Of a DNA stretch of 1,908 nucleotides, positions 617 to 1,552 are shown one piece after another (within the stretch, counting starts at the first letter, position 1; each line of letters starts with the position of its first letter). Location: assembly GCA_000004985.1 (NCBI GenBank), contig GG739306.1. One strand, given 5' to 3'. The DNA comes from Naegleria gruberi. Its lineage: Eukaryota. The notes below the pieces were generated by a model. It saw only the letters and a list, made by a program, of their open reading frames with translations, ran no database searches and was not told the origin of the DNA. A program made the translations under genes and the position numbers.

Positions 617-732
617 TTTTTTAAATTAAATTTCATGACTGTAGATGAAAACAACTAAAAATGGCGGGAGATTACTAACAGGGTTACCTTAAATAAAATA
701 AACAGCCTGAATAATGATTCAAGAAGCGTCGA

Positions 733-743
733 TGGTTTAGTGG
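733..743 (+). promoter_or_regulatory. Pol III A-box of the tRNA-Gly gene (TGGTTTAGTGG).
   Basis: Matches the A-box consensus TRGYNNARNGG at tRNA positions 8-19. Confidence 0.7.
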
Positions 744-774
744 TAGAATACGGCGTTGCCATCGCCGTGACCCG

Positions 775-785
775 GGTTCAATTCA
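775..785 (+). promoter_or_regulatory. Pol III B-box (GGTTCAATTC) with its final conserved C replaced by the first base of the insertion.
   Basis: The B-box consensus is GGTTCGANTCC. Here GGTTCAATTC is followed by A785 instead of C62, so the insertion junction lies inside the B-box. Confidence 0.6.
777..784 (+). repeat. Target-site duplication, left copy (TTCAATTC, tRNA positions 54-61).
   Basis: Identical 8-mer at 1516-1523. The bases just outside differ (G776 vs T1515, A785 vs C1524), so the duplication is exactly 8 bp. Confidence 0.7.
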
Positions 786-951
786 TTTTGATAGTATGAA
801 TTATTGTGATTGTGTTGTTTCTCAATTTAATTTGGGAATTTCATTTCCCGTTCTCCAATGTTGTGAGCATTTTGCTTTTATTATTGTTAATTCTTTTTAT
901 TTAAATTTCTGTGCGTCGACCAATTATAAACATACTGTACATGTATTAAAA

Positions 952-964
952 TCCGTTACCCGAT
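952..964 (+). repeat. 13-bp perfect direct repeat TCCGTTACCCGAT, copy 1 (copy 2 at 997-1009).
   Basis: Read directly: aaaTCCGTTACCCGATgg versus attTCCGTTACCCGATag, 45 bp apart. Confidence 0.9.
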
Positions 965-996
965 GGTTAATATTTAATGTTATGGATGTATTAATT

Positions 997-1009
997 TCCG
1001 TTACCCGAT
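997..1009 (+). repeat. 13-bp perfect direct repeat TCCGTTACCCGAT, copy 2.
   Basis: Read directly. Confidence 0.9.
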
Positions 1010-1224
1010 AGTAAATTGTTTGAAAATGTAATTCATCATGTAATGTGTTAATTCAAAGTTTGTGAACATCATTAATGAATAAATTTTATTGTGATGACTC
1101 CTAATTAGGAAATTCCGTTTCCCTATACCCAATTATCAATATCTTTAATATTACATTATCAAAATTAATGTGTGAAATACATTTAAATAATAATTTAAAA
1201 AACATTGTATTAATTCAATTTCAG

Positions 1225-1238
1225 AATTGAATTCAATT
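1225..1238. repeat. Perfect 14-bp palindrome AATTGAATTCAATT centred on an EcoRI site.
   Basis: The sequence is its own reverse complement. AATTCAATT also occurs just upstream at 1212-1220. Confidence 0.85.
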
Positions 1239-1273
1239 GCCACATTAGGTAATTCCAAAACCCGTTACCTAAC

Positions 1274-1319
1274 TTCCAACTTTTATTTCCAACTTTCCAA
1301 TATTTCCAATATTTCCAAC
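1274..1319 (+). repeat. Degenerate microsatellite-like array of five TTCCAA units with period ~8-14 bp.
   Basis: TTCCAA at 1274, 1288, 1296, 1305 and 1314, in the run ATTTCCAAC / CTTTCCAAT / ATTTCCAAT / ATTTCCAAC. Confidence 0.8.
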
Positions 1320-1327
1320 ATTCAATA

Positions 1328-1365
1328 AAAGAACAACATTCAATGAAAAATTAAAGAACAACATT
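1328..1365 (+). repeat. Two copies of a 13-bp direct repeat AAAGAACAACATT (1328-1340 and 1353-1365).
   Basis: Read directly. Confidence 0.85.
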
Positions 1366-1373
1366 TGTTAATT

Positions 1374-1401
1374 ATTCAACATGATGTTTCACATCATGAA
1401 T
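1374..1401. repeat. 28-bp perfect direct repeat ATTCAACATGATGTTTCACATCATGAAT, copy 1. Each copy is an internal hairpin.
   Basis: Identical 28-mer at 1419-1446. Inside each copy, CATGATG (1380-1386) is the reverse complement of CATCATG (1392-1398) around a 5-nt loop TTTCA. The flanking ATTCA/TGAAT extend the stem with a 1-nt bulge. Confidence 0.9.
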
Positions 1402-1418
1402 TAAAAATAATGAACAGA

Positions 1419-1446
1419 ATTCAACATGATGTTTCACATCATGAAT
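1419..1446. repeat. 28-bp perfect direct repeat, copy 2 (hairpin).
   Basis: Read directly; it lies 45 bp after copy 1. Confidence 0.9.
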
Positions 1447-1515
1447 AATATTAAAATAAATAATTCATAATTTCATCATAAAATTAAAAGTTAAATGAAT
1501 TCCAAAAAAGGAAAT

Positions 1516-1523
1516 TTCAATTC
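1516..1523 (+). repeat. Target-site duplication, right copy (TTCAATTC).
   Basis: See the left copy; it is continuous with the tRNA 3' portion. Confidence 0.7.
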
Positions 1524-1535
1524 CCGGTCGACGCA
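1516..1535 (+). tRNA. tRNA-Gly(GCC), 3' portion: duplicated T-loop segment, T-stem 3' half CCCGG, acceptor 3' strand TCGACGC and discriminator A.
   Basis: CCCGG (1523-1527) is exactly complementary to CCGGG at 772-776. TCGACGC (1528-1534) is exactly complementary to GCGTCGA at 726-732. Joining 726..784 to 1524..1535 reconstitutes a canonical 72-nt tRNA. Confidence 0.8.
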
Positions 1536-1547
1536 GTCAGAAGTGAA

Positions 1548-1552
1548 TTTTT
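1548..1552 (+). terminator. Pol III terminator (TTTTT) 13 nt downstream of the tRNA 3' end.
   Basis: T5 run on the coding strand right after the discriminator base. A backup T6 lies at 1682-1687. Confidence 0.6.

Follow-up and report, generated by a model that had tools for sequence, protein, structure and literature searches.

The question raised by this locus is what a set of short, co-oriented repeats is doing inside an AT-rich block of Naegleria gruberi DNA. The DNA analyzed, in the following called the window, is the complete 1908-bp scaffold GG739306.1. The AT-rich block in it is an inserted element of 731 bp which interrupts a gene for tRNA-Gly(GCC). An earlier inspection of the letters (the original prediction) had drawn attention to five copies of the pentamer CCGTT in the block and proposed that they could be binding sites, either repeats recognized by a transposase or Myb-type sites for a recruited host factor. 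What we find looks like a mobile element with reiterated recognition repeats, inserting inside a small-RNA gene, and judging from the alignments presented below it landed in a native look-alike of its own internal repeat.

The block is a genuine insertion, a mobile element. Excision of 785-1523 (739 bp) gives back a perfect tRNA-Gly(GCC) cloverleaf of 71 nt, in which 726-784 is joined to 1524-1535, and the insertion point lies in the T-loop. Two copies of the octamer TTCAATTC (777-784 and 1516-1523) flank the element directly. The bases bordering the two copies differ, which makes the repeat exactly 8 bp long; it stands either for a duplicated target site or for a recombination crossover core. 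The parts of the interrupted gene are:

726-784, plus strand: 5' part of tRNA-Gly(GCC), with the acceptor 5' strand, the D-arm, the anticodon arm, the T-stem 5' strand and most of the T-loop (ARAGORN, Rfam).
777-784, plus strand: left octamer TTCAATTC, consisting of the T-loop and the first base of the T-stem 3' strand (repeat search).
785-1515, plus strand: inserted element, 731 bp, 24.4% GC, non-coding, with unidirectional direct repeats (excision test).
1524-1535, plus strand: 3' remainder of tRNA-Gly(GCC), with the T-stem 3' strand and the acceptor 3' strand (joining test).

In the window as it stands, ARAGORN calls a tRNA-Gly(gcc) at 725-796 on the plus strand. The Rfam tRNA score for this call is 21.2 bits, below the threshold of 29, because the 3' part is absent and the T-arm and the acceptor 3' strand are left unpaired. 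The split gene is almost certainly inactivated, since the break is in the T-loop, that is in the B-box of the RNA polymerase III (pol III) promoter, and since the element opens with ATTTTG. These first bases (785-790) put a run of four T directly after the truncated tRNA, and a pol III stop at this point, giving a truncated transcript of ~60 nt, would be expected.

The AT content of the element is 75.6%, slightly less than the ~78% first estimated. It begins with ATTTTGATAG... and ends with ...AAAAAAGGAAAT. There are no terminal inverted repeats: the tips share only ATTT/AAAT, and a gapped alignment of the two ends was equalled or bettered by 42-90% of the shuffles. When the six frames of the element were translated, concatenated and searched against 5.8 billion proteins, no homologue came up, and Rfam has no family with a match inside it at E<=1. 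All repeat classes run in one direction only, with CCGTT occurring five times forward and never in reverse, and TTCCAA seven times forward and never in reverse.

When both strands of the window are searched, CCGTT is found at 848, 953, 998, 1115 and 1262, each time on the plus strand, and outside 785-1515 it is absent from both strands. This confirms that there are five copies in a single orientation, all within the AT-rich insertion and none elsewhere. The other AT-rich non-coding DNA of the window (~360 bp) also has no CCGTT, as a sample too small to count. CCGTT is the most enriched pentamer of the element, with 5 copies observed against 0.49 expected from a first-order Markov model; the base composition gives 0.22 for the plus strand, and these two values replace the 0.15 calculated originally. 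At least four copies were reached in none of 1000 dinucleotide shuffles of the element. When the choice among all pentamers is taken into account (family-wise), 11 of 1000 shuffles hold an equally enriched pentamer. Copies 2 and 3 belong to a 45-bp tandem duplication, and if this is collapsed the four copies left still give CCGTT rank 1, at a family-wise 45/1000. Five copies, counted on both strands, were reached in 3 of 200 shuffles of the whole window. The enrichment is thus real but moderate. On the minus strand TAACGG is present three times, as had been predicted, in copies 2, 3 and 5, and copy 4 reads AAACGG there.

All five copies sit within a direct repeat of 13-16 nt with the consensus TYCRWWWCCCKNT. 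In a MAFFT alignment the five motif copies and the 3' junction share a single register, in which the skeleton A..T.C....CCC..T is invariant. In this register the CCGTT of copies 2, 3 and 4 stands opposite TCAAT of the tRNA, and that of copies 1 and 5 stands opposite CCGGT. With CCGTT in two registers, the five pentamers are two different parts of the 13-16 nt unit. The notion of five copies of one motif therefore holds in so far as the repeats are non-random and co-oriented, but not for the pentamer, and the CCGTT pentamers are GC-rich, CpG-containing cores of a longer unit rather than the unit itself. The units, which we call a to d, and the tandem duplication are:

796-852, plus strand: unit a (copy 1), ATGAAT...GGGAAT-TTCATTTCCCGTT, core 840-852 (17 of 20 positions match the junction; homology to 1075-1123).
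941-1030, plus strand: 45-bp tandem duplication with copies 2 and 3, cores TCCGTTACCCGAT at 952-964 and 997-1009 (87% identity over 31 nt).
1075-1126, plus strand: unit b (copy 4), ATGAAT...AGGAAAT-TCCGTTTCCCTAT, core 1114-1126 (homology to units a and d).
1239-1266, plus strand: unit c (copy 5), TTAGGTAAT-TCCAAAACCCGTT, core 1254-1266 (repeat search, MAFFT).
1461-1528, plus strand: unit d, 3'-terminal, ...ATGAATTCCAAAAAAGGAAAT followed by TTCAATTC and CCGGT, core 1516-1528 (alignment).

The perfect 13-bp pair TCCGTTACCCGAT at 952-964 and 997-1009 had been described correctly. The coordinates of the other copies were right overall, apart from a trivial offset in copy 1, which spans 844-856 and not 845-856.

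If one mismatch is allowed, the consensus TYCRWWWCCCKNT has exactly six sites in the window, at 840, 952, 997, 1114, 1254 and 1516, all on the plus strand (0.59 expected; 0 of 200 shuffles). The bare skeleton finds the same six sites and no others on either strand (0.20 expected; 0 of 200 shuffles). It should be noted that the skeleton and the consensus were derived from these same six sites, which makes the shuffle statistics partly circular. Informative despite this are the lack of any other match in the window and the nature of the sixth site, which is pure tRNA sequence.

This sixth unit (1516-1528) is the insertion target itself, TTCAATTCCCGGT, which comprises the T-loop and the T-stem 3' strand. 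The core of unit d is accordingly made up wholly of tRNA, namely the right octamer at 1516-1523 and the T-stem 3' strand. The original prediction had counted the five internal copies and overlooked this one in the T-arm target. Since the target matches the unit, the 3' junction created by the insertion reads as a full unit, GGAAAT-TTCAATTCCCGGT. In a local alignment of the element with the tRNA, copy 1, TTCATTTCCCGTTC (840-853), matches the target and its 3' flank, TTCAATTC followed by CCGGTC, at 12 of 14 positions.

The match goes beyond the tRNA part. The 20-mer across the 3' junction (1510-1529) consists of the last six bases of the element, GGAAAT, the octamer TTCAATTC and CCGGTC from the tRNA. 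It agrees with 834-853 (unit a, copy 1) at 17 of 20 positions, which none of 3000 shuffles achieved, and with 1108-1127 (unit b) and 1248-1267 (unit c) at 14 of 20 positions each. GGNAAT occurs only four times in the element, ahead of copies 1, 4 and 5 and at the 3' terminus; four of the six units are thus preceded by it. Upstream of units a, b and d the homology extends over 30-75 nt: 796-849 (unit a) aligns with 1075-1123 (unit b; 0 of 300 shuffles as good), and 1049-1123 (unit b and DNA upstream of it) aligns with the 3'-terminal 1461-1525 (unit d; 1 of 300). The strict co-orientation of the units within longer homologous segments points to duplication of the unit and not to independent factor sites.

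Downstream of the units no similarity to the tRNA acceptor or trailer was detected (104-974 of 1000 shuffles do as well). The similarity to the tRNA ends at the unit boundary, and the units are therefore discrete motifs and not captured tRNA flank. A model in which the units are fossil junctions or products of 3'-transduction was rejected, as the DNA downstream of them is unlike the tRNA acceptor or trailer. Another model, in which the units would be hairpin-forming mimics of the T-arm, was dropped after folding. Only units b and c folded better than shuffles, the junction unit did not, and unit b is the sole internal unit with a roughly T-arm-sized hairpin that clearly beats shuffles.

The reading that we favor, tentatively and granting that it may well be wrong, takes the units for binding repeats of the protein which mobilizes the element and has the same specificity pick the tRNA T-arm as target. 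The 13-16 nt units would be putative sites for a transposase or recombinase that an autonomous relative provides in trans, the element itself being non-autonomous. The DNA-binding specificity of this protein would also guide it to the look-alike TTCAATTCCCGGT in the T-arm of tRNA-Gly(GCC), which would bring the element into a tRNA gene present in many copies. The 8-bp duplication would then come from a staggered cut spanning the first eight bases of TTCAATTCCCGGT. In a variant the binding logic would be unchanged, the chemistry would be that of a tyrosine recombinase and the octamer would be the crossover core. Protein binding, motif-guided choice of the target and mobilization in trans are what we infer from the repeat family and its match to the target. 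Of the two proposals made originally, that of transposase-binding repeats is plausible and is strengthened by the target match. The repeats do lie in a mobile element and are of the kind expected for binding sites, but they are not the classical symmetric subterminal repeats, as all have one orientation and occupy positions 56-482 of the 731 bp.

We place the element in no named superfamily; the one it works most like is Dada. Dada transposons insert inside genes for tRNAs and small nuclear RNAs (snRNAs), among them tRNA-Gly, and are without terminal inverted repeats (Kojima & Jurka 2013, PMC3706591; Kojima 2022, PMC8869645). The target gene contains matches to their short subterminal repeats, and these repeats have been proposed as guides for target recognition; no superfamily other than Dada is known with insertions inside small-RNA genes (PMC3706591; PMC8869645). 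The Naegleria element resembles Dada in that it has inserted in a multicopy small-RNA gene (it splits tRNA-Gly(GCC), in the one copy seen), lacks terminal inverted repeats and has a short duplication at the target. There are also clear differences. The duplications of Dada are 6-7 bp and that of the Naegleria element is 8 bp, while the apparent 8-bp repeats of Dada-U1 have been interpreted as 6 bp (PMC3706591). The known tRNA targets of Dada are nucleotides 8-13 or the anticodon stem, whereas here the T-loop is used. The target-matching repeats of Dada are inverted and subterminal, whereas the unit found here, which does recur in the target, takes the form of direct internal repeats spread over ~430 bp at no fixed distance. 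Finally, Dada is unreported from Naegleria or any heterolobosean.

The second system to be compared, like Dada a published precedent for the binding logic of the favored reading, is Ac/Ds of the hAT type, in which the Ac transposase binds multiple AAACGG hexamers cooperatively and gives an 8-bp target duplication (PMC3260210). The Naegleria element has the 8-bp duplication and multiple short CpG-containing repeats, and AAACGG is the reverse complement of CCGTTT in copy 4. In Ac there are terminal inverted repeats of 11 bp and hexamers at both ends, whereas the element is without terminal inverted repeats and its own repeats are one-directional. The hexamer common to the two is probably coincidental, because the conserved unit here extends to CCC..T. 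A non-autonomous, Ds-like hAT element was rejected despite the 8-bp target-site duplication, since the ~10-25 bp terminal inverted repeats and the subterminal repeats at both ends are missing: the last 250 bp of the element have no unit except the one at the junction, and there are no copies on the reverse strand.

Several other classes were rejected. A miniature inverted-repeat transposable element (MITE) fails on the absence of terminal inverted repeats. A short interspersed nuclear element (SINE) or another retroposon of the type lacking long terminal repeats (non-LTR) would need a pol III promoter head of tRNA, 5S or 7SL origin, for which there is no Rfam match, and a 3' tail that is A-rich or made of simple repeats; the element ends in ...CCAAAAAAGGAAAT without a tail, and the T4 run in its opening ATTTTG would terminate pol III. 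As to a tRNA-derived element, beyond the unit and one 10-mer there is no significant similarity to tRNA and no Rfam match. A Helitron is contradicted by the 8-bp duplication, by termini which read ATTTT.../...GAAAT and not 5'-TC/3'-CTRR, and by hairpins located 70-135 nt from the 3' end. A non-canonical tRNA intron or group I intron was rejected as well: no Rfam intron family matches, and the 739-bp AT-rich block is bounded by an 8-bp direct repeat. A conceptual likeness exists to the bacterial insertion sequences which choose as targets sequences resembling their own ends or repeats of the host, such as the hot spots of the IS30 family and IS1397, which targets repetitive extragenic palindromic (REP) sequences. 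In these the specificity with which the transposase binds the element also selects the target. They differ from the Naegleria element in being prokaryotic, in having inverted-repeat ends and in encoding their own transposase.

The main rival to the favored reading is that the units are functionless by-products of duplications, their resemblance to the T-arm being coincidental or due to an ancient capture of a tRNA fragment. We regard this as rather unlikely. It draws on the tandem duplication which gave copies 2 and 3, on the longer homologous segments (30-75 nt) in which units a, b and d are embedded, on further duplications in the element to which no role can readily be assigned (a 28-bp perfect pair and an array of 9-bp repeats), and on a 10-nt inverted copy of the tRNA 3' end at 912-921, by which tRNA-like fragments do occur inside the element. 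Yet it is the core that is best conserved within the duplicated segments, with positions invariant in six of six units, against flanks that have diverged. Downstream of the units nothing tRNA-like follows, and the junction, including the element's own GGAAAT, mimics unit a so closely (17/20; 0/3000 shuffles) that coincidence is hard to maintain. A more radical view, that a rare pentamer has clustered by chance with no underlying repeat family, finds some room in a family-wise p of only about 0.01-0.05 and in the 3 of 200 whole-window shuffles with five copies; the extended skeleton, the single orientation and the longer flanking homology common to the copies make it very unlikely. A further suggestion is that the octamer arose not by target-site duplication but as the crossover core in a recombination that was site-specific and of the tyrosine-recombinase (Crypton/integrase) type. 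The T-arm, with CCGGG/CCCGG around the loop, would then be the core-type attB and GGAAAT-TTCAATTC-ATTTTG on a circular element attP, with the internal units as further sites bound by the recombinase. For prokaryotic tyrosine integrases, T-loops are a classical sublocation of integration. The lack of terminal inverted repeats, the identical short sequences at both junctions, the suitable symmetry of the target (a natural inverted repeat around a 7-nt spacer) and the co-oriented internal repeats, which resemble one junction half and would fit arm- or core-type sites, are all in line with this suggestion. Against it, a recombinase gene did not turn up, a circular form is not known, the arms of the putative attP have only the AAAT/ATTT symmetry, and elements which integrate in tRNA genes normally encode the recombinase and restore the gene, whereas the tRNA here is destroyed. 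We hold it to be improbable; it overlaps with the favored reading, as the units are target-matching binding sites in both, and differs only in the chemistry.

Two further proposals concern host factors, and we give both hardly any weight. The Myb-type sites (YAACGG) of the original prediction, at which the element would recruit a host transcription factor, have in their favor the three TAACGG on the minus strand. But YAACNG is present in the window at the level of chance (4 observed against 4.15 expected; 119 of 200 shuffles reach 4), only three of the five copies fit and two of these come from one duplication, the conservation runs well past the hexamer into CCC..T, and the sixth unit, in the tRNA target, is without any AACGG; this part of the prediction is not supported. 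The units could also be B-box-like sequences which bind TFIIIC, either as decoy pol III promoters or as guidance to the pol III machinery. They do align with the T-loop and T-stem, that is the B-box region, and the equivalents of C56 and C61/C62 are invariant. Compared with the B-box consensus GGTTCGANTCC, however, the equivalent of G53 is found in none of the five internal units and A58 only in unit c. No tRNA-like Rfam match exists inside the element, and the T-arm-sized hairpin is clear for unit b alone among the internal units.

A number of points weigh against the favored reading itself, in addition to the partial circularity of the shuffle statistics. The family-wise significance of the pentamer is moderate, only about 0.01-0.05, and two of the five internal copies stem from one recent tandem duplication. 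The units are not placed symmetrically at both ends, unlike the binding sites of classical cut-and-paste transposons. The analysis covered one copy of the element (n = 1), so that conservation of the units between copies, a multiple copy number of the element and target specificity are predictions, and one landing in a look-alike site may be no more than coincidence. No transposase or recombinase was identified; a query with the Perkinsus Dada-tG transposase, taken from the supplement of the Dada paper, returned only Perkinsus proteins in a search which is word-seeded and insensitive to distant relatives.

Further copies were looked for in several ways. The six-frame translation search mentioned above was aimed also at gene models overlapping other copies and gave no match. 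In metagenome contigs of the Joint Genome Institute (JGI) the 5' junction had no exact match, and the 3'-junction 20-mer had four chance matches, on bacterial-type contigs with no similarity in the flanks and no tRNA at the site. Viral contigs had no match to unit b, the core of copies 2 and 3, the 28-bp hairpin repeat or the 5' terminus. In the literature searched, no Naegleria element that disrupts tRNA genes and no such motif is described.

The remaining features of the element and of the tRNA gene are:

912-921, plus strand: decamer TGCGTCGACC, the exact reverse complement of tRNA positions 64-73 (GGTCGACGCA, window 1526-1535).
1274-1322, plus strand: TTCCAAY / TATTTCCAA array with a period of ~9 bp (Tandem Repeats Finder, TRF: 1284-1322, period 9, 4.4 copies).
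1374-1401 and 1419-1446, plus strand: two perfect copies (100% identity) of the 28-bp palindromic ATTCAACATGATGTTTCACATCATGAAT, 45 bp apart.
1548-1552, plus strand: run of five T, 13 nt past the tRNA 3' end (sequence).

The decamer and its counterpart in the tRNA are the best local match between element and tRNA, one which 19 of 500 shuffles equal. By a rough estimate such a match is improbable in DNA of 24% GC, and the decamer could be a piece of tRNA that was captured, or else a second recognition element. Of the CpGs in the element, nine in total, every one lies in a unit (848-852, 953-962, 998-1007, 1115-1119 and 1262-1266) or in the decamer (914 and 917). About 10.6 would be expected from the composition, and with a count so near to expectation the CpGs are concentrated in patches and not depleted overall. 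The array follows directly after unit c and is strand-asymmetric, with a GC skew down to -0.79; TTCCAA is found seven times on the plus strand of the element and never on the minus strand. Together the array and the units put nearly all C-runs of the element on a single strand. The two copies of ATTCAACATGATGTTTCACATCATGAAT each fold as a hairpin of 7-8 bp (z = -2.8), and their spacing of 45 bp is the same as the period of the unrelated tandem duplication at 941-1030.

The T5 run is probably the natural pol III terminator of the tRNA gene. Some 200 bp from the 3' end of the tRNA gene lies a complete 5S rRNA gene (minus strand, 1736-1854; Rfam 105 bits), convergent with it, and the two form a small cluster of pol III genes. 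On the other side of the element, the open reading frame (ORF) on the minus strand at 290-616 is 100% identical over its full length of 108 aa to a 'predicted protein [Naegleria gruberi]', and the database protein consists of this ORF alone. Downstream of the 108-aa gene there is another minus-strand ORF (6-212), whose 68 aa are rich in Lys, Glu and Arg; it may represent a second exon or a small gene of its own. The scaffold was probably not joined to the main part of the N. gruberi assembly, and the insertion probably explains why a piece of only 1.9 kb was left. A heterozygous or allele-specific insertion could be the cause, as could breaks in the assembly at the tRNA, 5S and element repeats; an allele with an empty site may be present elsewhere in the assembly.

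Target-specific DNA transposons are rare in eukaryotes. If the element was inserted at random or exists as a single copy, it would be an ordinary decayed transposon with internal duplications. Internal repeats which spell the target of their own element would give a directly testable model for the way in which mobile DNA comes to a safe site present in many copies, and the short recognition sequence could be exploited for targeted integration. That Naegleria harbors a whole family of elements without terminal inverted repeats, homing to the T-loop/B-box of tRNA genes by means of an internally reiterated motif of ~13 nt, is a doubtful proposition; if true, it would be the first sighting of such a family in a heterolobosean and a second case, independent of Dada, of strictly target-specific insertion into small-RNA genes at the DNA level, with a legible recognition code. 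For the genomics of Naegleria, the finding flags a putative repeat family that disrupts tRNA genes.

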